A DNA stretch of 56,790 nucleotides from a virus (IMGVR_UViG_3300046820_001502:1-56790), one strand, 5' to 3'; shown: positions 30,634-54,045, numbered from the stretch's first letter. A program made the numbers and translations. Notes: generated by a model from the sequence alone, not told the origin.

Positions 30634-31521
30634 TTAAATTCCTAATTCCGTCTCAAAAAAATGAACGAAGTGTGTTTTATTTTTAATTGATTCTCTATCG
30701 AAAACCGGAGTTGTGAGCCAAAAGTCTTCATGATACCAAGTATCAAAACTGAATGTTTTAAACATATCAGGATTTTCGAACTCTAAGTTTGTAATCATAC
30801 CTTCGTGATTTAATATATGATTTTCATTTAAACATAAATTACTTATTATATCAAATTCTTGTATGAACCATTTTATTTTTGAAATGTGTCCTCCCAAAAT
30901 ACCACCAACAGACATATGTTTATAATCATTATTATTTTTATAAACTTTTCTAATCTCATTTGGGTTATGTGAAAACATGGTATTTGCCAAGTTGATTAAT
31001 TTATCGCCAACCCAATTATTTATCTTTGGGAATAATTCAGGACAAAATATTTTTGTAAATGAATAGTTTTCCCAATCTCGAGATAAACCAGTAATCTTAT
31101 CGGAGTAAGGATTATATTTTAAGGTAAACAATCCTCTGTGAGATAAACCACAATCAATCCAATAAATGTAGTCATAGGATTCGTCGTATTCTTTTGAAAT
31201 AAGGTATATTTTATTCCAATCAACTTCATGGTAGAAATTAAATTGTTCGTTAGATTTTTTAATCTCTAACATTCTTTCCGTTTTTGGGTAGTCTTTAAGA
31301 TTTGAAATTTTAATCGTTACGTTATTTAAATTAAATTCCTCACAATATTTTTGTAACAAATCAAATTGAGTTTCATTACAATAACATATAATTTCATTAT
31401 TCATGTTATTTAATGTCCTTAAAGAATGTAAGTATCTTTCTTGTCTTGCAAATGACTCGTGACCAAAAAAAGGAAACCCAATAATATCGGTATAAAAGGC
31501 GGTTACTAGCTTTGTCTTCAT
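30634..31521 (-). CDS. WlaTC/HtrL-like glycosyltransferase
   Basis: KLVTAFY, YIYWIDCGL, VGGILGG; resembles the middle domain of the neighbouring gene. Confidence 0.6.
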   Translation of the reverse strand: MKTKLVTAFYTDIIGFPFFGHESFARQERYLHSLRTLNNMNNEIICYCNETQFDLLQKYCEEFNLNNVTIKISNLKDYPKTERMLEIKKSNEQFNFYHEVDWNKIYLISKEYDESYDYIYWIDCGLSHRGLFTLKYNPYSDKITGLSRDWENYSFTKIFCPELFPKINNWVGDKLINLANTMFSHNPNEIRKVYKNNNDYKHMSVGGILGGHISKIKWFIQEFDIISNLCLNENHILNHEGMITNLEFENPDMFKTFSFDTWYHEDFWLTTPVFDRESIKNKTHFVHFFETELGI

Positions 31522-35720: not shown

Positions 35721-35749
35721 TATTGTAGTTTAACAATAAATATCATTAA

Positions 35750-36676: not shown

Positions 36677-36742
36677 ACAAAAATTATAACTAATAGATCT
36701 ATTAAAATACAGAATTAGAAAATTGTTTTTATTATTAAGAGT

Positions 36743-39667
36743 ATGAAAAAGATTAAATTATTGTATTTAACACCTCATCTATCAACAGGTGGGATGCCAC
36801 AATTTGTTTTAAAACGAATTCAAGAACTCCAAAAATTTAAAGACAAGATTGAAATATTTTTAGTTGAGTATTCTCAATTCAGTTCAACTTACGTTGTTCA
36901 AAGAAATGAGATCATTAAATTATTAGGTGAAAACCATTTTTTTAGTTTAGGAGACACTACTGATGTAGATAGAAAATATCAACTAATGGATATTATTAAA
37001 AATAATGATATTGATATTATACATTCAGAGGAGATGATGGAAGGTTTTGAAAGTTTTAATAAAATCCCATTACCGTTATTAAATCAAATTTATTCTAATG
37101 ATAGAACTTGGAGAATTGTTGAGACTTGTCATAATATTTGGTTTAACCCACAAACACATAAAAAGTTTAATCCTGACGCATATTCGTTTGTAACACCATA
37201 CCATTTAGAAGAAACATTCTCTAATGAGAAACCGATGAAATTTTTATCACTATATCCGATTGAAGATAAAGTTTCTGAAATTTTAAAGGAGTGTGAGATT
37301 TATGGGGACTTTAATCAAGTACCTTTAATTAAAAAAATACAAATAAGAAATGAACTTGGTTTGGATATGTTTAAAACTCATGTTTTAAATGTTGGGTTAT
37401 GGACAAGTGGTAAAAATCAAGGTGAGGGTGTGAATGTTGCAAAAGAGTTAATCGAATCAAACCCTGATATTGAATTTCATTTTATTGGAAACCAAGCTCC
37501 GAACTTTGAGGATTATTGGGGACCGATCATGAATGACTTACCATCAAATGTAAAAGTTTGGGGTGAAAGAAATGATGTTGATAAGTTCATGCAAGCATGC
37601 GATGTATTGATGTTTAATTCAACTTGGGAATGTAATCCATTAGTTATCCGACAATCAATTGGATATGGAATGAAAATCCTATCAAGAAATCTACCACAAT
37701 ACATGGGTATGTTTGACGGATACATCACTCCGATTGAAGGGGATGTCAAAAATATATCAAAACAATTGGTCAGTCTTATTGAAAGTAATGGGGTTTACTC
37801 GATATTACCTGATGATAAATTTGGTGAAGATTTATTATCGATGTATAAAATTGTAATGAACGAGAATACCACAGAAAACAAACCACTAACCAAAGATTAT
37901 ACTTTTATTAAACATTATGTAACCCAACCTTATTTTGAGGTACAAGGGACTACTCAAAACAAATTAAACATTAAATATTTTGATGAAAACAATAATGTGG
38001 TTTATCAAAATGAATTACCTATCAATAGTTGGGTAAAACTAAATAAAGAATATTTTATTAAGTGGAGAACTACGGTTGAGGAAAACGGTCAAGTCATATA
38101 TGATGAAACCTTAAACTTAAAAGATAAAAGAGTTTATATTTCATTTGGATCTAAGTCTTTGGGTGATACGATGGCTTGGGTTCCTTATTGTGAAGAGTTT
38201 AGAAAAAAACACAACTGTAAACTAATCGTTTCTACATTCCTTAATGGGTTATTTAAAGATCAATATCCTGAAATAGAATTTATTGAGCCAGGTGAGGTTG
38301 TACCAAACATTCACGCACAATACAGATTAGGTTGGTATTACGACGATAAAGGTGAATTTGATAGAAACAAACACCCACACGACTTTAGAAAAATGCCGTT
38401 ACAAAAAACAGCATCTGATATTTTAGGATTAGAATATACTGAAATCAGACCAAAGTTAAAATTACCTAACACACCAAAAAAGAAAAAAGTTGGTATCGGT
38501 ATTCACTCAACAGCACAATCTAAGTATTGGAACAACTCAACAGGTTGGCAAGAAGTAGTTGATTATTTGAGATCATTTGGTTATGAGTGTATGATTTATT
38601 CCAAAGAAAATGATGGGTATATGGGTAACCATCACCCAAATGGTGTAACCAAATTTGTTGGTGGGACATTACAAGATGTAATTGATGATCTATCAACTTG
38701 TGAATTTTTTATTGGTTTAGGATCAGGTTTATCTTGGTTAGCTTGGGCATGTGAACTACCTGTTGTTTTAATTTCAGGGTTTAGTGAGAAATGGGCGGAA
38801 ACAAAATTAGACACATATAGAGTTATAAATGAAAATGTTTGTCACGGATGTTTTAATTCGGAAAGATTAGACGCTGGTGATTGGAATTGGTGTCCTTTAC
38901 ATAAAAACACAGATCGGATGTTTGAATGTACAAAACAAATAAATTCCGATATGGTTATAAATGAAATAAAAAAAATTATGAATAATACTAAAGAAGTTAC
39001 GCAAAGTAAGTTAGAAGGATTTGATTGGGGTGGAAAAGATAATTGGTATAGTGATGCCGCAATACAAGAAATTGAAAATGATAATATGTACGATAGATTT
39101 TTTACCGTTGAGGAAGGTGATATTGTTGTGGATTTAGGAGCGTCAATGGGCCCATTTACCTATTCTATTTTACCAAATAGCCCTAAACAATGTTATGTTG
39201 TTGAACCATTATCTTATCAAGTTGATGTGTTACATAAAAATGTTGGGGGAGATAATGTGAAAATTATTCGAGGAGCAATTACCGATAAAAAGAAAATTGA
39301 GATTACTTGGGATGGTATAACTGAAATTGCACCAACATTTACCTTTAAAGAGTTTTTGGATGAAAATAATATTGATAAAATTGATTTTTTAAAATGTGAT
39401 TGTGAAGGTGGTGAGTACGACGTATTCCAACCAAGTAATATTGAGTTTTTAAAAACCATACCAAAAATTGTGACTGAATTCCACATGAGAGTTGATGAGA
39501 ATTTTCATAACTGTAAGTTCAGATGGTTTAGAGATAATATACTACCACAATTTAATAACTACCAAGTTTTTTCTGTGGATGGTGTTGACATCAAATGGGA
39601 TTTATGGAATGACCACTTTTTAGAATACTATTGTGAAGTAATCATTTATATTGACAATAGAAAATAA
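36743..39667 (+). CDS. Trifunctional: GT4-like + TibC/Aah-like protein O-heptosyltransferase + FkbM methyltransferase
   Basis: PHLSTGGMPQ/KNQ/NSTWECNPL; SKSLGDTMAW/FIGLGSGLSWLAW/ISGFS/CHGC..WCP..FEC; VDLGASMGPF/FLKCDCEGGE. Confidence 0.8.
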   Translation: MKKIKLLYLTPHLSTGGMPQFVLKRIQELQKFKDKIEIFLVEYSQFSSTYVVQRNEIIKLLGENHFFSLGDTTDVDRKYQLMDIIKNNDIDIIHSEEMMEGFESFNKIPLPLLNQIYSNDRTWRIVETCHNIWFNPQTHKKFNPDAYSFVTPYHLEETFSNEKPMKFLSLYPIEDKVSEILKECEIYGDFNQVPLIKKIQIRNELGLDMFKTHVLNVGLWTSGKNQGEGVNVAKELIESNPDIEFHFIGNQAPNFEDYWGPIMNDLPSNVKVWGERNDVDKFMQACDVLMFNSTWECNPLVIRQSIGYGMKILSRNLPQYMGMFDGYITPIEGDVKNISKQLVSLIESNGVYSILPDDKFGEDLLSMYKIVMNENTTENKPLTKDYTFIKHYVTQPYFEVQGTTQNKLNIKYFDENNNVVYQNELPINSWVKLNKEYFIKWRTTVEENGQVIYDETLNLKDKRVYISFGSKSLGDTMAWVPYCEEFRKKHNCKLIVSTFLNGLFKDQYPEIEFIEPGEVVPNIHAQYRLGWYYDDKGEFDRNKHPHDFRKMPLQKTASDILGLEYTEIRPKLKLPNTPKKKKVGIGIHSTAQSKYWNNSTGWQEVVDYLRSFGYECMIYSKENDGYMGNHHPNGVTKFVGGTLQDVIDDLSTCEFFIGLGSGLSWLAWACELPVVLISGFSEKWAETKLDTYRVINENVCHGCFNSERLDAGDWNWCPLHKNTDRMFECTKQINSDMVINEIKKIMNNTKEVTQSKLEGFDWGGKDNWYSDAAIQEIENDNMYDRFFTVEEGDIVVDLGASMGPFTYSILPNSPKQCYVVEPLSYQVDVLHKNVGGDNVKIIRGAITDKKKIEITWDGITEIAPTFTFKEFLDENNIDKIDFLKCDCEGGEYDVFQPSNIEFLKTIPKIVTEFHMRVDENFHNCKFRWFRDNILPQFNNYQVFSVDGVDIKWDLWNDHFLEYYCEVIIYIDNRK

Positions 39668-39691
39668 TTTAAGATTTAAATAAGTTAAATT

Positions 39692-39725
39692 AAAAACCCC
39701 CATCTTTTCAGGTAGGGGTTTTTTT
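39692..39725. terminator. Probable bidirectional terminator between convergent genes
   Basis: AAAAACCCC...GGGGTTTTT inverted repeat with A/T tails on both sides. Confidence 0.65.
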
Positions 39726-42700
39726 ATGCTGGACAAGCGTGTGCCGCAATACAAGTCGTACAGTCACTATATTGTGCGGTTATTGTTCCTACTGATACGG
39801 TTGCGGGCCCAGTACTAGATGAAACAAAGTCAAAACATACACCAGTAAGAGGATCATAAAATCCACTGAATCCCATACCACCTTGAGCTAATACAACTTG
39901 GTTAGTGTTTAAACAACAGTTATAAACTTCGTAATAATTACAAGGGTTGGATTCTAAACACTTTTCACAAGTATCATAAGGAGTATCAGTGTAAAAATTA
40001 CTTGTTGGTGTATCTGTCGTTATTGACACACAAACATAACAGTTATCACTTATTACTTCAAGATAACTTAATCCAATTGTAAATACTCCATATGCGACTT
40101 GTGTTACGCCAGTTTCACAACAAGCCGAGAATAAATAATAGTCAGGACAGCCACCAACATCTAAACGACATTGTGTACAATCATCAAATTGTTTGGAGTT
40201 ATAAATTGGTACTGGCCAACTTACAGTACCCGTTAAGTCCCAAGAAGTAACTTCCCAACAAACACCATTTGTGTCTGTAAATATAGTCCCTGTTTGTGGG
40301 ACAAACGCTTGAGTTGCATATACCTCAACTTGTAAAGGGTTACAACAATTTCTTATTGTAACATAAACAACTTCAGGACAAGGATTTGCTGTTTTACAAG
40401 CTTCACATCCACCAAAATATTGGCTAGCTAAAGATATACTATAATTTGTTGGTAATTGATTTACTTGTGTATTAATTACCCAACAAAAACCATTTGTGTC
40501 TATCCAAATTTCTCCAATAGATACAGTTCCGGCTGGTATTGATATGATTTCTTGAGGTAAAACCTTACAACATGAATTAATAAACCAAAACTCAGGACAC
40601 TCATTTGTGGTAATACAGTCATCACAATTTGTGTATCCCGTTGTTCCAATTGTAATTGTTGGTGCTGTTACAGGTGCCCCGGTTCCAGATGTAACATTCC
40701 AACACAATCCATTATCATCAACAAAAGTATCACCAACTACTAAATCTAACGAACCTGTAACATATTCAAGTCCAGTAACACAACAACTATCAATTACCGC
40801 ATTATCAGGACAAGGGTTACTTGATATACAAGAAGAACAACTTGCGTAATTGGTCACTAATGTTCTAATACTATTTGGTGCTGCAAGTGTAGTACTTTCT
40901 ATTTCCCAACAGTTATCTTGAGCATCACTCCAAAATGTTCCTATCGTTAAACTACTACCAACAATAATTTCAGTTACAGTTGGTTCACAACAGTTTCTTA
41001 ACACATAAAATTCACCATCAGGAATTGTACAATCTTTTTCATAATTTAAGGTATATGTAAATCGTGGTTCTTGTGTAGGAGTATCAGCATCTTGAACAAT
41101 ATTAAAACCAACAACATAGAATATGTCACACGCATTATAATATTGTGTAAATGTATGTGAAACATCAAAACATAAATAGTTTGATGTCATATTGAAATAT
41201 GCTGGAGATATTACAGTTGTTAAAGGAATTAAATCTCCTAAATCATTACATTGATATAAATAAAGTGCCACAACAAAAGATGGTTGGTACGAAGATAGGT
41301 TAATCTTCCACCATACATTACCACAAAGTCTTATACTATCTCCAGCTCTAACATTAACTGGTGATGGAACACCTAAAAAGGCTGTATCACCTCTAAGGGG
41401 GTTCGCACTAAATCTTATAGGAACTCCTATATCCCAAGGACAACCATTCCAACCACATTCGGAACTACCCATCCAAAGAAAATTTGTGTTTGTGTCTGGC
41501 TGTGGGGTTAGTTTAAATTTACCCGAATTTGACGCTATTAATGTATTATCTATGTTACAACTTCCACCTCCACCAGTACAAGTTAATGTTACATTTACAG
41601 ATCCACTTGTTCCTGAGGTTGCGGTTATACAAGTTCCGATAAAATTAATACTTGTTGCACTTGATTGAACTAAATTTCCTTCGTCGAATATAGAAATTGC
41701 ACCTCCTCCGCCGCCACTTGTACCTGAAGATCCGTTTGTACCATTTGTTCCCGAAGTTCCAGGTGATCCTGTTGCCCCATTTGTTCCGTTTGTTCCTGAC
41801 GTACCATTTGTTCCGTTAGTTCCTGAAGTTCCCGGTGATCCTGTCGCCCCATTTGTTCCGTTTGTTCCTGACGTACCATTTGTTCCGTTAGTACCTGAAG
41901 TTCCCGGTGATCCTGTCGCCCCATTAGTTCCGTTTGTTCCCGAAGTCCCATTTGTTCCATTCGTACCTGAAGTTCCCGGTGATCCTGTCGCCCCATTAGT
42001 TCCGTTTGTTCCCGAAGTCCCATTTGTTCCATTCGTACCTGAAGTTCCCGGTGATCCTGTTGCCCCATTTGTACCATTAGTTCCTGAAGTACCATTTGTA
42101 CCATTAGTTCCTGAAGTTCCCGGTGATCCTGTAGCCCCATTTGTACCATTAGTTCCTGAAGTACCATTTGTACCATTAGTTCCTGAAGTACCAGGTGATC
42201 CTGTCGCCCCATTTGTTCCGTTTGTTCCTGACGTTCCATTTGTACCATTAGTTCCGTTTGTTCCATTAGTACCCGAAGTCCCATTAGTTCCATTCGTTCC
42301 TGAAGTCCCATTAGTCCCGTTAGTTCCATTTGTTCCTGACGTACCCCTTGTTCCTGACGTTCCATTAGTTCCGCTAGTACCATTTGTTCCATTTGTTCCT
42401 GATGTACCGTTCGTTCCTGAAGTTCCATTTGTTCCGTTAGTTCCATTGGTTCCCGAAGTTCCGTTTGTACCGTTGGTACCAGAAGTCCCATTTGTTCCAT
42501 TAGTTCCATTTGTTCCGCTAGTACCATTCGTACCGCTTGTCCCATTCGTACCATTCGTTCCTGATGTTCCATTTGTTCCGTTGGTCCCGTTAGTACCTGA
42601 CGTTCCATTTGTACCACTAGTACCATTAGTTCCGTTAGTTCCGCTAGTACCATTAGTACCGCTCGAACCATTTGTTCCATTTGTTCCTGAAGTACCATTT

Positions 42701-45700
42701 GTTCCATTAGTACCCGATGTTCCGTTGGTACCGCTAGTTCCGTTAGTTCCATTAGTCCCTGACGTACCGTTGGTTCCTGAAGTTCCATTAGTTCCATTTG
42801 TACCACTTGTTCCATTTGTACCATTAGTTCCTGAAGTTCCGTTTGTTCCATTTGTACCATTTGTCCCGTTGGTCCCTGAAGTCCCGTTAGTACCTGAAGT
42901 ACCATTCGTTCCTGACGTACCGTTTGTTCCATTAGTACCTGATGATCCGTTTGTACCGTTAGTACCTGAAGTTCCATTTGTCCCGCTAGTTCCGTTAGTA
43001 CCATTAGTTCCTGATGTACCATTAGTTCCGTTTGTCCCTGAAGTACCATTAGTGCCTGATGTTCCGTTTGTTCCATTTGTCCCGCTAGTTCCGTTTGTAC
43101 CATTGGTTCCGTTTGTTCCGCTAGTCCCGTTAGTACCGTTGGTACCACTTGAACCATTTGTTCCATTAGTTCCCGACGTACCGTTTGTACCTGAGGTTCC
43201 GTTAGTACCATTCGTACCGCTAGTGCCATTTGTTCCATTCGTACCGCTAGTTCCATTTGTACCATTAGTTCCCGAAGTTCCATTGGTACCTGATGTTCCG
43301 TTAGTCCCATTAGTACCACTAGTTCCATTCGTACCGTTTGTTCCGCTAGTACCGTTGGTTCCACTTGAACCATTTGTTCCATTCGTCCCTGAAGTGCCGT
43401 TTGTCCCATTTGTTCCATTTGTTCCCGAAGATCCGTTTGTTCCGTTAGTACCTGATGTTCCATTGGTTCCGTTAGTTCCATTCGTCCCTGATGTACCATT
43501 TGTTCCTGATGATCCGTTTGTACCGTTAGTACCTGATGTTCCATTAGTTCCCGAAGTCCCATTTGTACCGTTGGTACCACTTGAGCCATTAGTTCCGTTC
43601 GTTCCGCTCGTACCGTTTGTTCCTGACGTTCCATTTGTACCATTCGTTCCATTTGTACCATTTGTTCCTGAAGTTCCATTGGTTCCCGAAGTTCCGTTGG
43701 TTCCATTCGTACCTGAAGTTCCATTAGTACCATTTGTTCCGTTAGTTCCTGAAGTTCCGTTAGTTCCGCTCGTACCATTTGTTCCATTAGTTCCATTAGT
43801 ACCGTTGGTTCCTGAAGTCCCATTTGTTCCTGAAGTTCCGTTGGTTCCACTAGTACCATTTGTACCGCTCGTACCATTAGTACCCGATGTTCCATTAGTT
43901 CCGTTTGTTCCATTAGTTCCGTTTGTTCCCGATGTACCATTAGTACCACTTGTACCATTCGTTCCATTAGTTCCTGAAGTACCATTAGTTCCCGATGTCC
44001 CATTTGTCCCATTCGTACCTGATGTTCCATTTGTGCCGTTAGTTCCGTTTGTACCGCTAGTACCATTTGTACCATTTGTTCCTGAAGTTCCATTGGTTCC
44101 GTTAGTTCCTGAAGTTCCATTTGTACCTGACGTTCCATTGGTACCATTTGTTCCTGAAGTACCATTCGTACCTGATGTTCCATTAGTCCCATTAGTACCT
44201 GAAGTTCCGTTGGTACCATTTGTTCCTGAAGTACCATTTGTTCCGTTTGTACCTGAAGTACCGTTGGTTCCGTTAGTACCACTTGTACCATTCGTACCTG
44301 ATGTTCCGTTAGTTCCATTTGTACCGCTAGTACCATTAGTACCATTTGTTCCTGATGTGCCGTTAGTCCCAGAAGTTCCATTGGTTCCACTTGTTCCGTT
44401 AGTACCATTCGTTCCTGACGATCCATTGGTTCCATTGGTACCTGATGTTCCATTAGTCCCACTTGTTCCATTTGTACCATTTGTTCCTGAAGTACCATTA
44501 GTTCCGCTAGTTCCGTTTGTACCATTTGTTCCGCTAGTTCCATTTGTTCCGTTCGTACCGCTAGTACCATTTGTACCTGAAGTTCCGTTCGTACCATTTG
44601 TTCCTGATGTTCCATTCGTACCTGAAGTTCCATTTGTCCCATTCGTACCACTAGTACCATTAGTTCCATTTGTACCGTTAGTTCCGTTTGTTCCTGATGT
44701 CCCATTTGTTCCGTTGGTTCCTGATGTTCCATTAGTACCTGAAGTTCCATTTGTGCCGTTAGTTCCGTTTGTACCGCTAGTTCCATTGGTTCCGTTAGTT
44801 CCTGAAGTTCCATTTGTACCTGACGTTCCATTGGTACCATTTGTTCCTGAAGTACCATTCGTACCTGATGTTCCATTAGTCCCATTAGTACCTGAAGTTC
44901 CGTTGGTACCATTTGTTCCTGAAGTACCATTTGTTCCGTTTGTACCTGAAGTCCCGTTTGTCCCACTTGTTCCGTTGGTTCCATTCGTTCCATTAGTCCC
45001 ACTTGTTCCGTTGGTTCCATTCGTTCCGCTAGTTCCATTAGTCCCATTTGTTCCGTTAGTCCCATTCGTTCCGCTAGTTCCATTCGTTCCTGACGTTCCA
45101 TTCGTACCGTTGGTACCACTTGAACCATTTGTTCCGTTAGTACCCGAAGTTCCGTTTGTACCATTCGTCCCTGAAGTACCATTTGTTCCGCTTGTACCGT
45201 TAGTCCCATTAGTTCCACTAGTACCATTTGTTCCGTTTGTTCCACTAGTTCCGTTAGTACCTGAAGTACCGTTGGTTCCATTTGTACCGCTAGTACCGTT
45301 TGTTCCATTTGTTCCTGAGGTTCCATTCGTACCGCTAGTACCATTAGTACCATTTGTTCCCGAAGTACCATTTGTACCATTCGTACCTGAGGTTCCGTTT
45401 GTTCCGCTAGTTCCATTTGTTCCATTAGTACCGCTAGTCCCGTTAGTTCCATTTGTTCCTGAAGTTCCATTAGTACCCGAAGTACCATTCGTACCATTAG
45501 TTCCTGACGTACCATTAGTACCGTTGGTTCCATTCGTACCATTCGTACCATTTGTACCACTAGTCCCATTTGTTCCTGATGTTCCATTCGTACCACTAGT
45601 TCCGTTAGTTCCATTTGTACCTGAAGTACCATTAGTGCCGTTTGTACCAGATGTTCCATTCGTTCCGCTAGTACCATTTGTTCCGTTTGTCCCTGACGTT

Positions 45701-48700
45701 CCATTAGTTCCGTTCGTTCCATTCGTTCCGTTGGTTCCCGAAGTTCCATTGGTTCCATTTGTACCACTTGTACCGTTAGTACCATTAGTTCCGTTTGTTC
45801 CATTTGTACCACTTGTACCGTTAGTACCATTAGTTCCTGATGTTCCGTTAGTCCCATTAGTACCCGATGTACCATTTGTTCCGCTAGTTCCGTTGGTTCC
45901 ATTAGTACCATTCGTACCATTAGTTCCGCTAGTACCATTTGTACCGTTAGTTCCTGATGTTCCGTTTGTCCCTGAAGTACCGTTAGTACCGTTGGTTCCC
46001 GAAGTTCCATTCGTTCCGTTTGTACCTGAAGTTCCATTTGTACCATTTGTCCCCGATGTACCATTAGTACCTGAAGATCCGTTCGTACCATTCGTTCCGC
46101 TAGTTCCATTAGTACCATTCGTTCCACTAGTACCATTTGTTCCAGACGTACCATTTGTTCCATTAGTACCGCTAGTTCCGTTCGTACCATTTGTTCCATT
46201 AGTACCGTTAGTACCTGATGTTCCGTTTGTTCCATTCGTACCTGATGTTCCATTGGTTCCATTTGTTCCTGACGTACCGTTCGTACCGCTAGTACCGTTT
46301 GTTCCATTTGTTCCTGACGTTCCATTAGTTCCATTAGTTCCGTTAGTACCGTTTGTTCCCGATGTCCCATTCGTACCGCTAGTACCATTAGTTCCGTTAG
46401 TACCGTTTGTACCTGAGGTTCCGTTGGTTCCATTAGTTCCGTTGGTACCATTTGTTCCGCTAGTTCCATTCGTTCCTGACGTACCGTTTGTTCCTGATGT
46501 GCCGTTAGTTCCGTTAGTTCCGTTAGTACCGTTTGTTCCCGATGTTCCGTTAGTACCGTTTGTTCCCGATGTTCCGTTCGTTCCTGAAGTTCCATTTGTA
46601 CCGTTGGTACCGTTAGTTCCGCTTGAACCATTTGTTCCATTTGTTCCTGACGTACCGTTTGTTCCATTAGTACCGCTAGTACCATTTGTTCCCGATGTTC
46701 CATTAGTACCGTTGGTTCCTGATGATCCGTTTGTACCATTTGTCCCACTAGTGCCATTTGTGCCTGAAGTTCCATTCGTTCCATTGGTACCGTTAGTTCC
46801 TGATGTTCCGTTTGTTCCATTCGTACCTGAGGTTCCGTTGGTACCATTTGTTCCGTTTGTACCATTTGTACCCGATGTCCCATTGGTTCCGTTCGTTCCG
46901 CTAGTTCCATTGGTTCCGTTTGTTCCCGATGTTCCGTTGGTACCATTTGTTCCATTAGTTCCGTTCGTACCGCTAGTTCCGTTGGTACCATTTGTTCCAT
47001 TAGTACCATTTGTACCTGATGTACCATTCGTTCCACTAGTTCCATTCGTTCCGTTTGTACCATTCGTTCCATTTGTCCCGCTAGTTCCATTAGTACCTGA
47101 TGTTCCGTTTGTTCCATTAGTACCCGACGTCCCGTTTGTTCCAGAAGTACCATTAGTACCGTTGGTACCGCTTGAACCATTTGTTCCATTCGTTCCCGAA
47201 GTTCCATTAGTACCTGATGTACCATTGGTTCCATTAGTACCTGAAGTTCCGTTTGTCCCATTCGTACCTGATGTACCATTTGTTCCCGAAGTTCCATTCG
47301 TACCATTCGTACCTGAAGTTCCATTTGTACCTGAGGTTCCGTTTGTTCCGTTTGTGCCCGATGACCCATTAGTTCCATTCGTACCGTTGGTACCATTTGT
47401 ACCTGAAGTCCCATTAGTTCCTGACGATCCATTTGTCCCATTAGTACCCGATGTCCCATTAGTACCCGATGTTCCGTTAGTACCGTTGGTTCCATTTGTT
47501 CCGTTAGTTCCATTTGTTCCGCTAGTACCGTTGGTTCCGTTTGTTCCATTCGTTCCGCTAGTTCCATTTGTACCTGAGGTTCCATTCGTTCCGTTTGTTC
47601 CTGATGTTCCATTAGTACCGTTTGTTCCTGAAGTTCCATTGGTACCACTTGAACCATTTGTTCCATTAGTACCGTTAGTTCCATTCGTACCTGATGTTCC
47701 GTTAGTCCCTGATGTACCATTTGTTCCATTTGTCCCTGAAGTACCATTAGTCCCGTTTGTTCCATTTGTACCTGAGGTACCATCAGCCCCACTTGTTCTA
47801 TAATATGTATTTCCGCTTGTATCAACAACAACAAATCTTGTTGCTCCTGAATTAATTGTAATGCCTGTAATACTTAACGCATCCGTAGTTGTTCTACCCG
47901 AACCATCAAAAGATATCTTATGAACTCCCGCACCATTTTTAATTTCTAACACCGGATCAGCATCAGACGCACTACCTCTTTGTATTGTAACCGCACCTAA
48001 TGTTGAATTAGTTATAATCTCAGGTTCAGATGAGTTATTATATGCTTGTTGTAAATTTGTTGTTGGACTACCTCCCGCAGCACCTACCACATCACCAAAT
48101 TTTGATACATTAAAGAATAACGCTTTTGCAGTATCTGTTAAGACAGTTGTGTCTTTTCTAAGAGAAAGTATTCCTATTAAAATGGCATCATTATTGAAAT
48201 TAGAAAATTCAACAAATTGTTCAGTTTGGATTCCAGCAACCGCCGCAGCCAAACTTGAATATGTTTGTTGTCCATATTGAACTCTAAACACACCATTTTG
48301 AACCAAATAAATTCTTTGGTTAGTTGAAGTTCCCCCTCCACCAGGTATAGTGGTGATAACACCATTCAAATCGTATTTTGTTGGATCAATAAATGTAGTG
48401 TTTGATGCCGTACCCCCTGTTTGTGTTCTATATTGAAATGTACATGGAGAGGTACCTGAAACGTATATTGTATCAGGTTGTAAAGGATTAGCAGCAAAGT
48501 TAATACCCAAACCATACAAATATTGTGCACTTGTGTTAAACCTTAAATTCGCACCATTTGCTGATGGATAGATACCCCCATTTATTAAGTTAATAGGAGT
48601 GAACATGTCACGAAGTTGTGACAATGGTGATTGGATAAAGTCAGGTTGACTAAACGCATTTATAATAGTTGTTTTGTCAGCATGTCCTAATTTACCTAAG

Positions 48701-49302
48701 AATATATTTTGTCTTCTTTGTGTCTCAGTTAAAGGAAGATTTGATTGTGAAAGTGTACCACCACTTGTTAAATAAATCCAACTTTCTGTATCAGTTGTTC
48801 TATATGTAGCACTATAAGTACCACCACTGTATGCGACATAATAAAGTTGCGGAAATAAAGGATTTGTAAAATCATCTACAACCCAACCTTTTACAGGTGC
48901 TACAGTAAATGTGGTTGGGGATGCAATACTTAAACCAGAAAATGAAAATACCCCTGTTGAGGAGTTAACACTTGAAATATTATATGCAATGGCAACCCAG
49001 TTTGAACCGTTACTTGCAAGTTGTAATGAATTTGTTTCCCCTAATACAACAAATGACTTATCATCAATATTCTGACCAGAATATGGTAATACAGTAACCG
49101 CACCACCACCATTATTTTTAATTACAATTAATCTACCCTGTTTTCCAACAGCTGTCTGTAGTTGAACGTTAAAGGTACCACCTGTAACGTCAATCATGTA
49201 ATCACTATCAGTAACAGTATAAGTACTGTTAATTGTAAGTTGGGGGAATGTTATACCACTAAGAGATTTAAGCCCATTACGGGCAACGAATTCATTTGCC
49301 AT
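39724..49302 (-). CDS. Giant collagen-like fibre protein (3192 aa): N-terminal globular region, 675 Gly-X-Y triplets, C-terminal domain with six Cys-rich repeats
   Basis: Non-repetitive N and C termini in frame with the GTN/GTS repeat; TATTTAT upstream, terminator downstream. Confidence 0.88.
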   Translation of the reverse strand: MANEFVARNGLKSLSGITFPQLTINSTYTVTDSDYMIDVTGGTFNVQLQTAVGKQGRLIVIKNNGGGAVTVLPYSGQNIDDKSFVVLGETNSLQLASNGSNWVAIAYNISSVNSSTGVFSFSGLSIASPTTFTVAPVKGWVVDDFTNPLFPQLYYVAYSGGTYSATYRTTDTESWIYLTSGGTLSQSNLPLTETQRRQNIFLGKLGHADKTTIINAFSQPDFIQSPLSQLRDMFTPINLINGGIYPSANGANLRFNTSAQYLYGLGINFAANPLQPDTIYVSGTSPCTFQYRTQTGGTASNTTFIDPTKYDLNGVITTIPGGGGTSTNQRIYLVQNGVFRVQYGQQTYSSLAAAVAGIQTEQFVEFSNFNNDAILIGILSLRKDTTVLTDTAKALFFNVSKFGDVVGAAGGSPTTNLQQAYNNSSEPEIITNSTLGAVTIQRGSASDADPVLEIKNGAGVHKISFDGSGRTTTDALSITGITINSGATRFVVVDTSGNTYYRTSGADGTSGTNGTNGTNGTSGTNGTNGTSGTNGTSGTNGTNGTNGTNGSSGTNGTSGTNGTNGTSGTNGTNGTSGTNGTSGTNGTNGTNGTSGTNGTNGTNGTNGTNGTSGTNGTSGTNGTNGSSGTNGTSGTNGTNGTNGTNGSSGTNGTNGTSGTNGTSGTNGTNGTSGTNGTSGTNGTNGTSGTNGTNGTSGTNGTSGTNGTNGSSGTNGTNGTSGTNGTSGTNGTNGTSGTNGTSGTNGTNGTNGTNGTSGTNGTSGTNGTNGTNGTNGTSGTNGTNGTNGTNGTSGTNGTNGTSGTNGTNGTSGTNGTNGTNGTNGTSGTNGTNGTSGTNGTNGTNGTSGTNGTSGTNGTNGSSGTNGTNGTSGTNGTSGTNGTNGTSGTNGTNGSSGTNGTNGTNGTSGTNGTSGTNGTNGTSGTNGTNGTNGTNGTSGTNGTSGTNGTSGTNGTNGTNGTNGTSGTNGTNGTNGTSGTNGTSGTNGTNGTNGTNGTSGTNGTNGTSGTNGTSGTNGTNGTSGTNGTNGTSGTNGTNGTNGTNGTSGTNGTNGTSGTNGTSGTNGTNGTSGTNGTNGSSGTNGTSGTNGTNGTSGTNGTNGTSGTNGTNGTSGTNGTSGTNGTNGTSGTNGTNGTNGTNGTSGTNGTSGTNGTNGTSGTNGTNGTSGTNGTNGTNGTNGTSGTNGTNGTSGTNGTNGTNGTNGTSGTNGTNGTSGTNGTSGTNGTNGTSGTNGTNGTSGTNGTSGTNGTSGTNGTNGTNGTNGTNGTSGTNGTNGTSGTNGTSGTNGTNGTSGTNGTNGTSGTNGTSGTNGTNGTSGTNGTNGTSGTNGTSGTNGTNGTSGTNGTNGTSGTNGTSGTNGTNGTSGTNGTNGTSGTNGTSGTNGTNGTSGTNGTNGSSGTNGTNGTSGTNGTSGTNGTNGTNGTNGTSGTNGTNGTSGTNGTNGTNGTSGTNGTSGTNGTNGTSGTNGTNGTSGTNGTNGTSGTNGTSGTNGTNGTSGTNGTSGTNGTNGTSGTNGTNGTNGTSGTNGTSGTNGTNGTSGTNGTNGTNGTNGTSGTNGTNGTSGTNGTSGTNGTNGTSGTNGTSGTNGTNGTSGTNGTNGTSGTNGTSGTNGTNGTSGTNGTSGTNGTNGSSGTNGTNGTSGTNGTSGTNGTSGTNGTNGTSGTNGTNGTSGTNGTSGTNGTNGTSGTNGTNGTSGTNGTNGTSGTNGTNGTSGTNGTSGTNGTNGTSGTNGTSGTNGTNGTSGTNGTNGTSGTNGTNGTNGTSGTNGTNGTSGTNGTSGTNGTNGTSGTNGTSGTNGTNGTNGTNGTSGTNGTSGTNGTSGTNGTSGTNGTSGTNGTNGTNGTNGTSGTNGTSGTNGTNGTNGTSGTNGTNGTSGTNGTSGTNGTNGTNGTNGTSGTNGTSGTNGTNGSSGTNGTNGTSGTNGTSGTNGTNGSSGTNGTSGTNGTNGTNGTSGTNGTNGSSGTNGTNGTNGTSGTNGTNGSSGTNGTSGTNGTNGTSGTNGTNGTSGTNGTSGTNGTNGTSGTNGTNGTSGTNGTNGTSGTNGTSGTNGTNGSSGTNGTNGTSGTNGTNGTNGTSGTNGTNGTSGTNGTSGTNGTNGTSGTNGTNGTSGTNGTSGTNGTNGSSGTNGTNGTSGTNGTSGTNGTSGTNGTNGTNGTNGTSGTNGTNGTSGTNGTNGTSGTNGTSGTNGTNGTSGTNGTSGTNGTNGTSGTNGTNGSSGTNGTSGTNGTNGTSGTNGTSGTNGTNGTNGTSGTNGTNGTSGTNGTSGTNGTNGTNGTSGTNGTNGTSGTNGTNGTNGTSGTNGTSGTNGTNGTSGTNGTSGTRGTSGTNGTNGTNGTSGTNGTNGTSGTNGTNGTNGTNGTSGTNGTNGATGSPGTSGTNGTNGTSGTNGTNGATGSPGTSGTNGTNGTSGTNGTNGATGSPGTSGTNGTNGTSGTNGTNGATGSPGTSGTNGTNGTSGTNGTNGATGSPGTSGTNGTNGTSGTNGTNGATGSPGTSGTNGTNGTSGTNGTNGATGSPGTSGTNGTNGSSGTSGGGGGAISIFDEGNLVQSSATSINFIGTCITATSGTSGSVNVTLTCTGGGGSCNIDNTLIASNSGKFKLTPQPDTNTNFLWMGSSECGWNGCPWDIGVPIRFSANPLRGDTAFLGVPSPVNVRAGDSIRLCGNVWWKINLSSYQPSFVVALYLYQCNDLGDLIPLTTVISPAYFNMTSNYLCFDVSHTFTQYYNACDIFYVVGFNIVQDADTPTQEPRFTYTLNYEKDCTIPDGEFYVLRNCCEPTVTEIIVGSSLTIGTFWSDAQDNCWEIESTTLAAPNSIRTLVTNYASCSSCISSNPCPDNAVIDSCCVTGLEYVTGSLDLVVGDTFVDDNGLCWNVTSGTGAPVTAPTITIGTTGYTNCDDCITTNECPEFWFINSCCKVLPQEIISIPAGTVSIGEIWIDTNGFCWVINTQVNQLPTNYSISLASQYFGGCEACKTANPCPEVVYVTIRNCCNPLQVEVYATQAFVPQTGTIFTDTNGVCWEVTSWDLTGTVSWPVPIYNSKQFDDCTQCRLDVGGCPDYYLFSACCETGVTQVAYGVFTIGLSYLEVISDNCYVCVSITTDTPTSNFYTDTPYDTCEKCLESNPCNYYEVYNCCLNTNQVVLAQGGMGFSGFYDPLTGVCFDFVSSSTGPATVSVGTITAQYSDCTTCIAAHACPA
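39727..41010 (-). repeat. Six ~70-aa Cys-rich protein repeats (CC...C[W/Y/F]...CxxC...C)
   Basis: Read from the translation, e.g. NCCEP..DNCWEI..CSSCISSNPCP and SCCVT..GLCWNV..CDDCITTNECP. Confidence 0.85.
41716..47790 (-). repeat. 9-nt-period coding repeat (Gly-Thr-Asn / Gly-Thr-Ser), 6075 nt = 675 triplets
   Basis: Gly at every third residue; length exactly divisible by 9. Confidence 0.95.
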
Positions 49303-49420
49303 CTATATTATTTCTTTTTTCCCTATCCAAAAGAAAATCCTTTGATTTATTTGTTATTCAATAAATATTTGTTAAGTAACGATTATTACCTAAAAAGAAA
49401 AATTAAATAAAAGATTGATT

Positions 49421-52400
49421 TTAGAATACAATTCTTGTAGCGACTAAGATGTCCCAAGTACCTCCAGTAATTGTTGCAATTAAATCAACAATACCTGCGG
49501 TTACTTGGACATTCCATTTAAGATTCGCGGTAGAACCATTCAAATCAGGTGATGACACATCAGTAAATGCGGCCCCCGCATTATCCCAAGTTGCATATAC
49601 TTGACCAACTCTTTTTTGACCTGCATTTCCTGTAATACAATATTCGAAGAACGCAGCACATCCAAAATCAGATCTAAATCTATCGATAGTGGTTGTTGTA
49701 GTTATACCTGTTGCGGTTTTAGTATTAACTTTATCGTAACTTCTATTTAGAGTTAATATACCGTCAGTTCCATTATATGTGAAATTAGTTTCTGCAACTA
49801 TTCCTCCCGAGCCGTCAGATGTTAGTATTTCATTATCCGAACCTGGTACTACAGGTGATGATCCGCTTGTACCATCAGTACCTGAAGTTCCATTTGTCCC
49901 TGACGTTCCATTAGTTCCGCTAGTACCATTTGTTCCTGACGTTCCGTTTGTTCCTGAAGTCCCATCTGTTCCATTAGTTCCTGAAGTCCCATCTGTTCCA
50001 TTAGTTCCTGAAGTACCGTTTGTTCCGTTAGTACCCGATGTCCCATCAGTACCTGAAGTTCCGTTAGTTCCATTTGTTCCCGAAGTCCCGTTAGTACCAT
50101 TCGTACCATTCGTACCATTCGTACCACTAGTACCATTAGTTCCGCTAGTACCATCAGTTCCATTAGTTCCTGATGTACCATTCGTACCATTAGTTCCATT
50201 TGTTCCTGAAGTACCGTTGGTTCCATTTGTTCCTGATGTACCATTAGTACCATTTGTTCCTGAAGTCCCATTAGTACCATCCGTACCATTCGTACCATTA
50301 GTTCCGCTTGTTCCGTTAGTTCCGTTAGTCCCATTTGTCCCCGAAGTACCATCAGTCCCGTTAGTACCTGATGTTCCGTTTGTACCATTTGTGCCTGAAG
50401 TTCCGTTGGTTCCATTAGTACCTGATGTTCCATCTGTTCCGTTAGTTCCATTAGTCCCCGAAGTTCCATCTGTTCCGTTAGTACCTGAAGTACCGTTGGT
50501 TCCGTTAGTACCTGAAGTACCATCTGTCCCATTAGTTCCGTTAGTCCCATTTGTACCAGAAGTCCCATCTGTTCCTGATGTTCCGTTAGTTCCATTTGTA
50601 CCGCTAGATCCATCTGTTCCGTTGGTTCCACTTGTACCATTAGTACCTGAAGTACCATTTACACCTGATATCCCACTAGTACCATCTGTCCCTGAAGTGC
50701 CGTTAGTTCCGCTAGTTCCATCTGTACCATTTGTACCATCGGTTCCTGAAGAGCCATTTGTCCCATCGGTTCCTGAAGAGCCATTTGTCCCATCGGTTCC
50801 TGAAGTTCCATTTGTCCCATCGGTTCCTGAAGTCCCATCTGTTCCGTCAACACCTGAAATACCACTTGTCCCATCTGTACCTGAAGTACCGTCTGTTCCA
50901 TTAGTCCCATCTGTTCCGCTTGAACCATTTGTTCCGTCAGTTCCACTTGTTCCATCTGTTCCATTTGTTCCTGAAGTCCCATCTGTTCCGTTTGTACCTG
51001 AGGTTCCATCTGTTCCATTTGTTCCTGAAGTCCCATCTGTTCCGTTTGTCCCCGAAGTACCATCTGTTCCGCTAGTACCATCAGTTCCATTCGTACCATT
51101 TGTTCCGCTAGTACCATCAGTTCCTGAACTTCCATCCGTACCATTTGTTCCGCTAGTACCATCAGTTCCATTCGTACCATTAGTTCCACTTGTTCCATTC
51201 GTACCACTTGATCCGTCTGTTCCATTAGTTCCCGAAGTTCCATCTGTTCCATTAGTTCCCGAAGTTCCGTCCGTTCCGTTTGTACCGCTTGAACCGTTTG
51301 TACCGCTTGAACCATTTGTTCCTGAAGTCCCATCTGTTCCATTTGTACCTGAAGTTCCATCCGTACCACTTGATCCATTTGTACCATCAGTTCCATCAGT
51401 CCCATTAGTACCTGAAGTTCCATCAGTCCCGTTTGTTCCACTAGTACCATCAGTACCCGAAGTACCATTTGTTCCGTCCGTACCGCTAGTACCATCAGTT
51501 CCATTTGTTCCACTAGTACCGTCTGTTCCATTTGTCCCTGAAGATCCATTTGTCCCATCTGTACCGCTAGTTCCATTTGTCCCATCTGTACCGCTAGTTC
51601 CGTCAGTACCATTAGTACCTGAAGTTCCATCTGTACCATCAGTTCCATTTGTACCACTAGTACCACTAGTACCATCTGTTCCATTTGTACCTGAAGTACC
51701 ATCTGTTCCATTTGTACCTGAAGTTCCATCTGTTCCACTTGAACCATCTGTACCATTCGTCCCACTAGTCCCATCAGTCCCTGAAGTCCCATCTGTCCCG
51801 TTAGTTCCGCTTGAACCATCTGTTCCGTCTGTCCCATTTGTACCCGAAGTACCATCTGTTCCGCTAGTTCCATCTGTACCATTAGTTCCGTCTGTACCTG
51901 AAGTACCATCTGTTCCATTTGTACCGTCAGTACCTGAGGTTCCATCTGTACCATTAGTTCCTGATGTACCATTAGTTCCTGATGTTCCGTTAGTACCATC
52001 TGTACCTGAAGTCCCATCTGTTCCATTTGTTCCGCTAGTCCCATCTGTTCCATTTGTTCCGCTAGTCCCATCTGTTCCATTTGTTCCGCTAGTTCCATCT
52101 GTACCATTTGTTCCGCTAGTTCCATCTGTACCATTTGTACCGTCAGTACCATTTGTTCCTGAAGTTCCGTCTGTTCCATCTGTTCCTGAAGTTCCATCTG
52201 TTCCATCTGTTCCTGAAGTTCCGTCTGTACCATTTGTACCCGAAGTCCCATCAGTACCATTTGTTCCATTTGTTCCATCTGTACCATTAGTTCCTGAAGT
52301 TCCGTCCGTACCACTAGTACCATCAGATCCATCTGTTCCGTTTGTACCACTTGAACCGTCAGTTCCATTAGTTCCCGACGTACCATTTGTTCCGTTAGTT

Positions 52401-53536
52401 CCTGATGTACCGTTGGTACCATTTGTTCCTGAAGTTCCGTTTACTCCAGATATACCACTTGTCCCATCAGTCCCTGAAGTTCCGTCTGTTCCGCTAGTCC
52501 CATCAGTTCCGTTTGTGCCTGATGATCCGTCTGTTCCGTTTGTGCCACTACTACCTGAAGTACCGTCTGTTCCGCTAGTTCCGTCTGTTCCGTTAGTTCC
52601 CGACGAACCGTCTGTTCCGTTAGTTCCCGACGAACCATCTGTACCATTTGTTCCGCTAGTTCCGTCTGTACCACTAGTCCCATCGGTTCCTGAAGTTCCA
52701 TCAGTCCCATTTGTACCCGAAGATCCATCAGTACCATTAGTTCCACTACTTCCATCAGTACCATTTGTACCTGACGTTCCATTTACACCTGATAATCCGC
52801 TTGTTCCATCTGTTCCGCTTGTTCCATCTGTTCCACTTGTTCCATCTGTTCCACTTGTTCCATCTGTTCCACTTGTTCCATCAGTTCCTGAAGTTCCGTC
52901 TGTTCCACTACTTCCGTCCGTACCATTTGTACCTGAAGACCCATCTGTCCCGTTAGTACCACTTGATCCATCAGTACCATTTGTTCCGCTAGTTCCATCT
53001 GACCCACTAGTTCCATCAGTTCCTGAAGTTCCATCTGTTCCTGAAGTTCCATCTGTTCCACTTGAACCTGAAGACCCACTTGAACCTGAAGACCCACTTG
53101 AACCTGAAGACCCACTCGATCCTGAAGATCCATTAGTTCCGTCTGTTCCACTTGATCCTGAAGATCCGCTTGAACCTGAAGACCCACTCGATCCTGAAGA
53201 TCCACTCGATCCTGATGAACCTGAACTACCTGATGAACCTGAACTACCTGATGAACCGCTTGATCCTGAACTACCTGATGAACCTGAACTACCTGCAGTT
53301 CCTGATCCACCACTTGTACCACTTGAACCATCTGTTCCTGAAGTACCGTCTGTACCTGAACTACCACTACTTCCTGTGGCACCACTTAAAATTGCCTGTA
53401 AATCACTTAAAGGAGCATAATAAGAAGAACCTTGTGGGCTCTGAGAAGTGTCTCCCGTAACAACTACGTGAAAAATATCGTTTAAGGTTACAGCTGAAAC
53501 CCTACTCCTGTCCGTTAATCTACTATATACTGGCAT
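49421..53536 (-). CDS. Second collagen-like fibre protein (1371 aa; 392 Gly-X-Y triplets of GSS/GTD/GTS/GTN)
   Basis: Short unique N-terminus and ~145-aa beta-rich C-terminal domain flank the repeat; TATTTAT upstream. Confidence 0.88.
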   Translation of the reverse strand: MPVYSRLTDRSRVSAVTLNDIFHVVVTGDTSQSPQGSSYYAPLSDLQAILSGATGSSGSSGTDGTSGTDGSSGTSGGSGTAGSSGSSGSSGSSGSSGSSGSSGSSGSSGSSGSSGSSGSSGSSGSSGSSGTDGTNGSSGSSGSSGSSGSSGSSGSSGSSGTDGTSGTDGTSGTDGTSGSDGTSGTNGTDGSSGTNGTDGSSGTNGTDGSSGTDGTSGTDGTSGTDGTSGTDGTSGTDGTSGTDGTSGLSGVNGTSGTNGTDGSSGTNGTDGSSGTNGTDGTSGTDGTSGTDGTSGTNGTDGSSGTNGTDGSSGTNGTDGTSGTDGTSGSSGTNGTDGSSGTNGTDGTSGTDGTSGTDGTSGISGVNGTSGTNGTNGTSGTNGTNGTSGTNGTDGSSGTNGTDGSDGTSGTDGTSGTNGTDGTNGTNGTDGTSGTNGTDGTSGTDGTDGTSGTDGTDGTSGTNGTDGTNGTDGTSGTNGTDGTSGTNGTDGTSGTNGTDGTSGTNGTDGTSGTDGTNGTSGTNGTSGTNGTDGTSGTDGTNGTDGTSGTDGTNGTDGTSGTDGTSGTNGTDGTDGSSGTNGTDGTSGTDGTSGTNGTDGSSGTDGTSGTNGTDGTSGTNGTDGTSGTSGTNGTDGTDGTSGTNGTDGTSGTDGTNGTSGTDGTNGSSGTNGTDGTSGTNGTDGTSGTDGTNGTSGTDGTSGTNGTDGTSGTNGTDGTDGTNGSSGTDGTSGTNGTDGTSGTNGSSGTNGSSGTNGTDGTSGTNGTDGTSGTNGTDGSSGTNGTSGTNGTNGTDGTSGTNGTDGSSGTDGTSGTNGTNGTDGTSGTDGTSGTNGTDGTSGTNGTDGTSGTNGTDGTSGTNGTDGTSGTDGTNGSSGTDGTNGTDGTSGTDGTSGISGVDGTDGTSGTDGTNGTSGTDGTNGSSGTDGTNGSSGTDGTNGTDGTSGTNGTSGTDGTSGISGVNGTSGTNGTSGTNGTDGSSGTNGTNGTSGTDGTSGTNGTNGTNGTDGTSGTNGTNGTSGTNGTDGTSGTNGTNGTDGTSGTNGTNGTSGTNGTNGTSGTNGTDGTSGTNGTNGTNGTSGTNGTNGTDGTNGTSGTNGTNGTSGTNGTNGTSGTNGTNGTNGTSGTNGTDGTSGTNGTSGTNGTNGTNGTNGTSGTNGTNGTSGTDGTSGTNGTNGTSGTNGTDGTSGTNGTDGTSGTNGTSGTNGTSGTNGTSGTNGTSGTDGTSGSSPVVPGSDNEILTSDGSGGIVAETNFTYNGTDGILTLNRSYDKVNTKTATGITTTTTIDRFRSDFGCAAFFEYCITGNAGQKRVGQVYATWDNAGAAFTDVSSPDLNGSTANLKWNVQVTAGIVDLIATITGGTWDILVATRIVF
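49856..53383 (-). repeat. 9-nt-period coding repeat, 3528 nt = 392 Gly-X-Y triplets
   Basis: Gly at every third residue; length exactly divisible by 9. Confidence 0.95.
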
Positions 53537-53614
53537 TTCAAACTATAAATATTTATGACTTGTGAAGTATCTACTCATATTATAATAATTATTTAACTTT
53601 ATTGTTTATAAAGA

Positions 53615-54043: not shown

Positions 54044-54045
54044 AA

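Follow-up and report, generated by a model that had tools for sequence, protein, structure and literature searches.

How is a collagen-like chain held together when it lacks nearly all of the residues to which the stability or guidance of collagen folding is ascribed? This question is raised by the viral record IMGVR_UViG_3300046820_001502, the whole of which (56,790 nt) was analysed and is referred to as the window. One open reading frame (ORF) on its minus strand, P0001, encodes a phage fibre protein with a shaft of 677 Gly-X-Y triplets without a break (coordinates are given in Table 1). We lean towards the reading that this protein forms a collagen-type triple-helical fibre of ~0.58 µm, which would be stabilised by O-glycosylation.

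Composition of the Collagen-like Shaft

A first-pass annotation, made from the nucleotide sequence, had reported 675 unbroken triplets at 41716..47790 with 7 Pro, 1 Arg and 1 Asp. Translation revealed these residue counts to be exact and the run to be slightly longer, beginning 18 nt before position 41716; the number of 675 is obtained when the terminal GGG and GGA triplets are left out. The 2031 residues of the shaft are composed of 680 Gly, 650 Thr, 435 Asn, 248 Ser, 9 Ala, 7 Pro, 1 Asp and 1 Arg, with neither Lys nor Glu being present, which bears out the earlier statement on the lack of Pro and charge pairs in the array. GTN (435) and GTS (207) prevail among the triplets, followed by GSS (17), GAT (7) and GSP (7) and by GAD, GTR, GGG and GGA with one occurrence each. 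The seven GATGSP motifs, and with them all 7 Pro of the shaft, are confined to the sub-array at its C-terminal end.

The Pfam Collagen profile PF01391 matched the fibre ORF with 880.9 bits against a cut-off of 27.2 (E 9.3e-273). Of the features that characterise this family, Gly at every third residue was found in 677/677 triplets and an adjoining trimerisation domain is predicted in the form of a TNF-like head, whereas the usual stabilisers, i.e., Pro/hydroxyproline and Lys-Glu/Asp pairs, are lacking. The reading frame of the triplets is that of both flanking domains, each of which has homologues. Alternative open frames over the array (41670-47834 on the minus strand and 42446-47803 on the plus strand) were rejected as low-complexity by-products.

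The triplet number of the shaft is about twice that of human type I collagen. With the rise of the collagen helix of 0.286 nm per residue, 2031 residues amount to ~581 nm. The length of ~580 nm given in the first-pass annotation is, thus, arithmetically right, and it is valid only if the shaft is a collagen-type helix.

Selection on the Gly Register

The array is far from chance. Positions 1 and 2 of the Gly codon were found to be invariant in 677/677 units, with an entropy of 1.45 bits at position 3, and the X codon specifies Thr in 643 of the 677 units at a third-position entropy of 1.78 bits. Y is Asn in 435 units and Ser in 224. Units with Ser at Y avoid each other, as evident from 1 observed versus 74 expected adjacencies, and recur mostly at a distance of 2 (70 times) or 3 (107 times) triplets. 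Variants of the array from another study carry in-frame insertions and deletions of 9 nt, that is, of whole triplets.

Since the synonymous sites are near saturation, whereas neither the register nor the identity of two residues in three varies, the array appears to be under selection for a Gly-register structure. The codon pattern indicates long and strong purifying selection on a structure requiring Gly at each third residue and not on a free linker. Even if the shaft were not triple-helical, its strict Gly register would still demand an explanation.

Asn-Gly is the most deamidation-prone dipeptide in flexible chains, where the reaction is fast. The shaft contains 435 of these dipeptides, which must be shielded by the fold or by a modification unless deamidation can be tolerated. 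As regards the 428 N-G-S/T sequons, N-glycosylation was considered, and a Pfam search of the scanned ORFs of the window returned no family beyond those named in this text.

Terminal Domains of the Fibre

The N-terminal region matched the PHROG tail-fibre families phrog_16641 (E 8.6e-22) and phrog_5668. Its long homologues (n = 73) were found among proteins of 1755-5586 aa, and none of these 73 has a GXY run of at least 6; a shorter relative with the same N-domain terminates in a Peptidase_S74 chaperone domain. The AF2 model of the region (pLDDT 75) was compared with solved structures using VIA. Model residues 18-110 resembled the Solidus gp83 tailspike (Z 14.2, rmsd 1.5 Å over 88 residues), followed by CBA120 TSP4 (Z 10.9), the Pa223 capsid spike (Z 10.8) and T4 gp9 (Z 9.6), and are, thus, like the anchor modules of tailspikes, gp9 and gp10. 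Residues 113-402 resembled a phi812 baseplate protein (Z 9.0) and the tail fibre of cyanophage A-1(L). Likeness in fold and homology together with the location among structural genes of a tailed phage place the protein most likely with the phage tail fibres and tailspikes, an identity that the first-pass annotation had not recognised; the capsid spike among the matches bears on whether its place in the virion is the tail or the head. Sequence relatives of solved structure were found below E 0.4 neither for the N domain nor for the C domain nor for the C-terminus of P0002, a second collagen-like ORF.

Homologues of the N-domain were also observed in Aquirufa (Bacteroidota) on chromosome-sized contigs, namely the 'beta strand repeat-containing' proteins P0028, P0030, P0031, P0036 and P0037 of 2400-2700 aa with ~50% identity, which may be prophage, tailocin or cellular adhesin genes. 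They give a weak hint at the host.

The C-terminal 657 aa following the shaft were modelled with a pLDDT of 86. A putative jelly roll at model residues 46-226 found its VIA matches in the P domain of IBDV VP2, RANKL, TNF, PM2 P1 and the BC2L-C lectin, with Z 9.6-7.5 over ~115-138 residues, where the tool grades Z 7-8 as middling. Pfam families, C1q and TNF included, were not reported for these 657 aa at E up to 0.1. VIA was preferred to a whole-model Foldseek search, in which the query TM was merely 0.09-0.15, the model being multi-domain.

When the head together with the 30 triplets preceding it was predicted in three copies, an ipSAE of 0.90 versus 0.02 for the best control resulted, with a contact agreement of at least 63% and a partner pLDDT of at least 67 in the runs. 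In the calibration of the tool this mark was reached by 20/30 solved pairs and 1/23 single chains; the calibration was based on two copies and on its own alignments, and its counts hold only roughly for the three copies here. The pass may reflect likeness to solved TNF-family trimers.

The C-terminal family is small, with 97 representatives among 1.84 billion, and GXY runs of at least 15 are present in 8 of the 96 retrieved members, several of which are cut by contig ends. In five close relatives, no match of the C-terminal domain was found, and in L028 the collagen arrays are placed N-terminal to the conserved fibre body; modules are shuffled among relatives, and head and tip are swapped between them. 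The Cys-rich modules following the head matched nothing in Pfam or PHROGs, and in Atlas only viral hypothetical clusters at 0.80-0.87, which is under the trusted level. They may bind metal or form disulfides. These modules were also observed as stand-alone small proteins.

Authenticity and Length of the Array

The array is not a simple assembly expansion, a possibility for which the first-pass annotation had allowed. The share of unique k-mers in the array is 89% for 31-mers and 97.5% for 101-mers, the longest exact repeat measures 174 nt, and Logan contigs from four runs of four studies contain exact pieces of the array (84-872 nt) over its full extent. Windows of 150 nt have a median best non-self identity of 0.81, without the long near-identical blocks that would be expected from allele concatenation. 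A non-self identity of 95% is reached at only two places, the Pro-containing sub-array and a ~215-nt duplicate at 44066-44280 / 44759-44973. In run X1, which is possibly the source sample, array pieces have a depth of 15-21, similar to the 17.5-31 of the flanks. Because of the unique k-mers, the low self-identity, the depth in X1 and the exact pieces in four studies, we conclude that the sequence content of the array is real and single-copy.

Less can be said for length and order, both of which rest on one short-read metagenome assembly. No listed contig piece from runs X1, X3, X5 and X6 spans the array, many joints have short sides of 21-30 nt, which makes them unreliable inside a repeat, and an X3 contig joins 42849 to 44330, in a run with in-frame 9-nt insertions and deletions. 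The ~215-nt duplicate could conceal a loop error of 693 nt, and a second array gene adjoins. The 295-kb contig G008 (the contig of L068), a relative rated 98% complete, has both of its ends inside collagen-like arrays, with open frames of 755 and 654 aa; probably, a circularly permuted genome was cut by the assembler at a position within an array of this kind. These observations would suit a real gene whose array was inflated or mis-ordered by the assembler, for instance from pieces of co-occurring strains or paralogous arrays. Against this stand the k-mer, self-identity and depth values given above and the occurrence of long unbroken arrays elsewhere, with 392 triplets in P0002 of the same window assembly and, independently of this assembly, with 421 (L008, on an independent contig) and 192 (L021) triplets in relatives, so that we regard this explanation as very unlikely.

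A TibC-Type Glycosyltransferase beside the Fibre Gene

The fibre gene and the gene of a 974-aa enzyme converge, with 57 nt between their stop codons. The enzyme scored 297.3 bits with TIGR04414 (Aah/TibC protein O-heptosyltransferase; cut-off 200), which assigns it to this family, and its residues 407-748 matched TibC of PDB 4RAP with E 3.5e-72. The 4RAP alignment was counted by hand against the residues named in PMC4358343. It was found that the catalytic base Asp-110 and the sugar-binding residues Thr-226, Lys-230 and Trp-305 of TibC as well as the iron-finger Cys 339, 342, 358 and 370 are kept.

For the gene encoding a PF11397 protein in the same region, 221 relatives were found in IMG/VR; 80 loci were fetched, and arrays were scored within ±10 kb. 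Only 4 of the 80 encode a TibC-type domain, each of them beside or near collagen-like ORFs. Three of them hold the three longest arrays among the loci (421, 192 and 116+ triplets); the fourth has its collagen-like ORF (1935 aa, with 316 triplets divided among 7 runs) at a distance of ~0.7 kb, slightly past the fetched flank, a count biased by the extension of flanks only at loci already noted for TibC/GT974 matches or arrays. Arrays of at least 100 triplets within the flank were, hence, found in 3/4 loci with TibC versus 0/76 without (one-sided Fisher 4/82160, ~5e-5, relatedness ignored). Five further large contigs were inspected. G008 has a TibC match over the cut-off and arrays, three contigs have neither, including one rated 100% complete, and in the remaining one an array lies at the extreme end, with TibC missing from the available sequence.

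To judge by these genome comparisons, the TibC-type protein glycosyltransferase appears to be a specific neighbour of the fibre gene. The earlier proposal that glycosylation stabilises the array gains indirect genomic support from this domain, which is encoded 57 nt away and co-occurs with collagen-like ORFs; the support is one of genomic linkage.

Proposed Fibre and Competing Explanations

In the model that we favour, the product of the ORF would be one of three identical chains in a virion fibre, most likely of the tail or baseplate, with the N-terminal modules fixing the fibre to the particle. Together with those of two sister chains, the 677 Gly-Thr-Asn/Ser triplets would form a triple helix of the collagen type, ~0.58 µm in length. 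The TNF-like trimeric head, situated right after the shaft, would nucleate folding, and the six Cys-rich modules would constitute the distal tip, which is probably receptor-binding. Dense O-glycosylation of Ser/Thr of the shaft in the host cytoplasm may stabilise the helix, or at least stiffen and protect it. The candidate enzyme is the adjacent TibC-type transferase, and the neighbouring transferases may extend or decorate the glycan. The position of the array between trimeric modules and the absence of periodic turn signals favour a three-chain helix. A more demanding form of the model, in which a natural collagen helix of ~0.6 µm without Pro or salt bridges depends for its folding on hyper-O-glycosylation by the phage TibC-type enzyme, is put forward tentatively, and we regard it as rather doubtful.

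Several observations weigh against the glycosylated helix. Host-guest peptide studies have identified Thr at X and Asn at Y as poor triple-helix formers. The trimer prediction has its first confident contacts at residue 91, which belongs to the head, and leaves the 90 collagen residues without confident placement. TibC Arg-286, which binds the sugar, aligns with Val and Pro-300, which is responsible for stereoselectivity, with Gly, so that three of the four sugar-binding residues are kept and the donor sugar may not be ADP-heptose; gmhA of the ADP-heptose pathway was not found in 5 related contigs, four of them incomplete, so that this negative is weak. TibC itself modifies Ser and not Thr, and its substrate is a beta-helix (PMC4358343). 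In 71 of the 80 PF11397 loci there is no GXY run of at least 10 within ±10 kb, and both PF11397 (80/80 loci) and FkbM/HtrL (73/80) occur mostly without collagen neighbours. These two are, therefore, genes of the lineage and not specific to the fibre, and the idea of a whole glycosyltransferase cluster dedicated to the fibre was rejected on the basis of the 71 loci. L018, L019, L059 and L062, which have arrays of 57-63 triplets, are without a TibC domain in the available sequence, and the contigs in which TibC and arrays co-occur are relatives and not independent events.

Some of these findings also suit a collagen-type helix that is left unmodified, namely the distribution of PF11397 and FkbM/HtrL, the Ser specificity of TibC on beta-helix substrates, the loss of Arg-286 and the failure to find gmhA. 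The shaft would then be held by the terminal trimer domains, its sheer length and hydrogen-bond and water networks of Thr/Asn/Ser, with the neighbouring glycosyltransferases acting elsewhere, e.g., on other virion proteins, the host envelope or DNA. We consider this unlikely, since the TibC-type domain was encountered only in contigs with collagen-like ORFs (4/4 loci and G008), the spacing of Ser at Y is non-random and suits spaced modification sites, and GTN is an unfavourable triplet.

That the array is not triple-helical, and forms instead an extended, heavily glycosylated mucin-like tether or a disordered linker between folded trimeric ends, is less likely still. Such a tether would match the composition of only Ser, Thr, Asn and Gly, the adjoining protein glycosyltransferases, the absence of confident predicted contacts in the collagen part and the TPTPT-rich linker in a neighbouring ORF. 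However, it needs no Gly register, yet Gly is kept in 677/677 units with synonymous sites nearly saturated; the variants from another study gain or lose whole triplets, and Asn-Gly, present 435 times, deamidates quickly in flexible chains. Least probable of all, in our view, is another packing based on polyproline II, such as a polyglycine-II-type sheet or, as proposed in the first-pass annotation, a bundle of this type, with the snow-flea antifreeze protein and the gp38 adhesin tip as precedents. Gly at every third residue, small polar side chains and the near absence of Pro might suit packed polyproline II helices. However, periodic turns or punctuation are absent over 2031 residues except for the seven GATGSP at one end, only one residue in three is Gly, and the flanking modules are three-fold, while three parallel polyproline II chains would amount to a collagen helix anyway.

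Comparison with Known Systems

BclA of Bacillus is an exosporium glycoprotein with a C1q/TNF-like trimeric head, O-glycosylated Thr and a stalk of tens of triplets in which GPT, with its Thr at Y, prevails. The fibre is like BclA in having a collagen-like region followed directly by what is predicted to be a jelly-roll trimer head, and a Thr-rich stalk for which glycosylation is the proposed stabiliser; glycosylation of BclA is named in PMC11923368. Unlike BclA, it has 677 triplets with Thr at X and Asn/Ser at Y, is almost Pro-free, would belong to a phage particle and not to a spore, and has no family, C1q included, reported by Pfam in its C-terminal part.

The occurrence of Gly-X-Y runs in phage tail-fibre genes has long been established (Smith et al. 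1998, as cited in PMC1079782). P-SSM2 orf28 and EPclA of an E. coli O157 prophage share with the present fibre the location of Gly-X-Y in tail-fibre genes and are thought to be trimeric (PMC1079782, PMC3368898), but they are far shorter, with Pro and/or ~22% charged residues (EPclA, PMC11923368). According to PMC11923368, prokaryotic collagen-like chains reach up to ~2000 triplets, with interruptions, and Thr-rich triplets are frequent in bacteria and viruses, glycosylation being suggested as stabiliser. The same paper proposes Lys-Glu/Asp salt bridges as a common collagen folding device; the shaft, being without such pairs, runs against this proposal. Its supplementary sequences include short GTS/GSS/GTD and GTN arrays in uncharacterised proteins. 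Pro-free GTS/GSS arrays were found to be common in metagenomic fibre-like proteins, where they are much shorter, a point not raised in the first-pass annotation. Among the matches listed (240 rows, 231 distinct metagenome proteins), the longest unbroken run has 192 triplets and the longest of the GTS/GSS type 136; each search scored ~8000 candidates within a length window, and longer runs may exist, such as that of L008 with 421.

AIDA-I/TibA with Aah/TibC (BAHT family) offer a parallel in that the gene of a highly repetitive surface fibre rich in Ser/Thr adjoins that of a cytoplasmic enzyme of this family, whose catalytic Asp and iron-finger Cys are kept in the phage. The phage differs in that the putative substrate is a collagen-like array and not a beta-helix passenger, the enzyme is fused to GT1 and FkbM, and Arg-286 and Pro-300 of TibC are replaced. 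In the cuticle collagen of Riftia and in (Gly-Pro-Thr)10, whose helix depends on galactosylation, the sugar on Thr replaces hydroxyproline as helix stabiliser (PMC11923368); unlike the phage shaft, this animal protein and this synthetic peptide carry Thr at Y and contain Pro. In mycobacteriophages, phage glycosyltransferases modify virion proteins (Freeman et al. 2023, as cited in PMC12619734), but their glycans are on the C-terminal tails of capsid and tail-tube subunits and not on a collagen-like fibre. The 'moraphage' of PMC12619734 was set aside, a relation to this lineage not being shown.

A description of such a fibre was not found in the literature searched, which lay mostly outside subscription journals, nor was a relevant paper that links TibC or a heptosyltransferase with a phage collagen-like protein.

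Genomic Context

The window is an IMG/VR virus record with a CheckV completeness of 19%. It encodes a tail sheath, a gp19-like tube, a T4-type baseplate protein, a family-B DNA polymerase (PolB) and an SNF2 helicase, and is a fragment of an uncultured freshwater jumbo T4-like myovirus. Related contigs are up to 295 kb long, and the runs that bear the sequence are mostly labelled freshwater metagenomes. The closest relatives of the sheath are those of an uncultured 484-kb phage and of Microcystis phage Mel-JY01 (31-37% identity). Megablast of positions 30000-42000 against 50,697 phage records returned nothing.

P0002 is the next gene upstream of the fibre gene on the same strand. Its array is rich in GTD and, therefore, acidic. 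The ~50-aa N-terminus of P0002 recurs in L008, L021, L028 and L018 and its small C-terminal domain in L062; after the array, an 'LTSDG..G' motif is shared by P0002 and all five of these relatives.

The cluster at 28246-39667 also contains a LamG protein. For the PF11397 protein, relatives of solved structure were not found. A scan of 36000-54500 for promoters and terminators gave 46 versus 52.5 and 10 versus 10.0 in shuffles, respectively, and is, thus, uninformative.

Further observations concern other genes of the window. A 712-aa protein (16274-18412, plus strand) contains a complete Fe/Mn superoxide dismutase (Sod_Fe_N and Sod_Fe_C, E 2.7e-40) inside a longer chain. A phrog_15511 segment is common to the ORFs 53615-54085, 22807-23649 and 26656-28233, all on the minus strand, and the first of these has a long TPTPT-rich linker that is likely an O-glycosylation-type stretch.

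Table 1. Features of the fibre gene and its surroundings (positions in the window).
Feature	Position	Strand	Basis
Fibre ORF P0001, 3192 aa, with collagen-like shaft	39724..49302	-	Translation, single open frame
N-terminal region, aa 1-504: anchor-like module (18-110) and conserved fibre body (113-470)	47791..49302	-	PHROG, homologues, AF2 and VIA
Shaft, 677 Gly-X-Y triplets without break, aa 505-2535	41698..47790	-	Longest uninterrupted Gly-X-Y stretch
Sub-array at the C-terminal end of the shaft, units of 72 nt (24 aa)	41774..42069	-	
Putative TNF-like jelly-roll head, aa ~2581-2761, predicted homotrimer	41020..41562	-	AF2 pLDDT 86, VIA, trimer score
Six tandem modules of ~70 aa, CC..C..CxxC..C pattern, putative distal tip	39727..41010	-	
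Collagen-like ORF P0002, 1371 aa, 392 unbroken triplets (GTN, GTD, GTS, GSS) at 49856-53383	49421..53536	-	
974-aa enzyme: GT1, TibC/Aah-type domain (aa 407-748, nt 37961-38986) and FkbM methyltransferase	36743..39667	+	
GT9-family glycosyltransferase, 308 aa	35750..36676	-	
PF11397 'Glycosyltransferase (GlcNAc)' protein, 414 aa	33106..34350	-	
NodU-like carbamoyltransferase	31518..33095	-	
FkbM methyltransferase with HtrL/YibB-like domain	28246..30624	-	
Tail sheath, 1111 aa, with an N-terminal part of ~830 aa ahead of the matched sheath domains	9259..12594	-	

Significance

Collagen-like shafts of phage fibres are known since 1998. What sets the present one apart is its unbroken run of 677 triplets, compared with 192 among the matches listed, and the near-total absence of those residues to which a stabilising or guiding role in the folding of collagen is ascribed. 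A further distinction is its linkage to a protein-glycosylating family that has so far been tied to bacterial autotransporters.

If the shaft is a triple helix, it would be a natural test of whether glycosylation or Thr/Asn/Ser networks can replace Pro and salt bridges, and would provide a three-letter design for very long recombinant collagen-like rods. Should the helix depend on glycosylation, the autotransporter heptosyltransferase family would gain a class of substrates, new to it, in collagen-like phage fibres, and Lys-Glu/Asp clamps as common collagen folding code would meet with a living counter-example. For the phage itself, a triple-helical shaft would mean a capture fibre several times longer than the fibres of T4, a matter of relevance to host finding by large phages in dilute freshwater.

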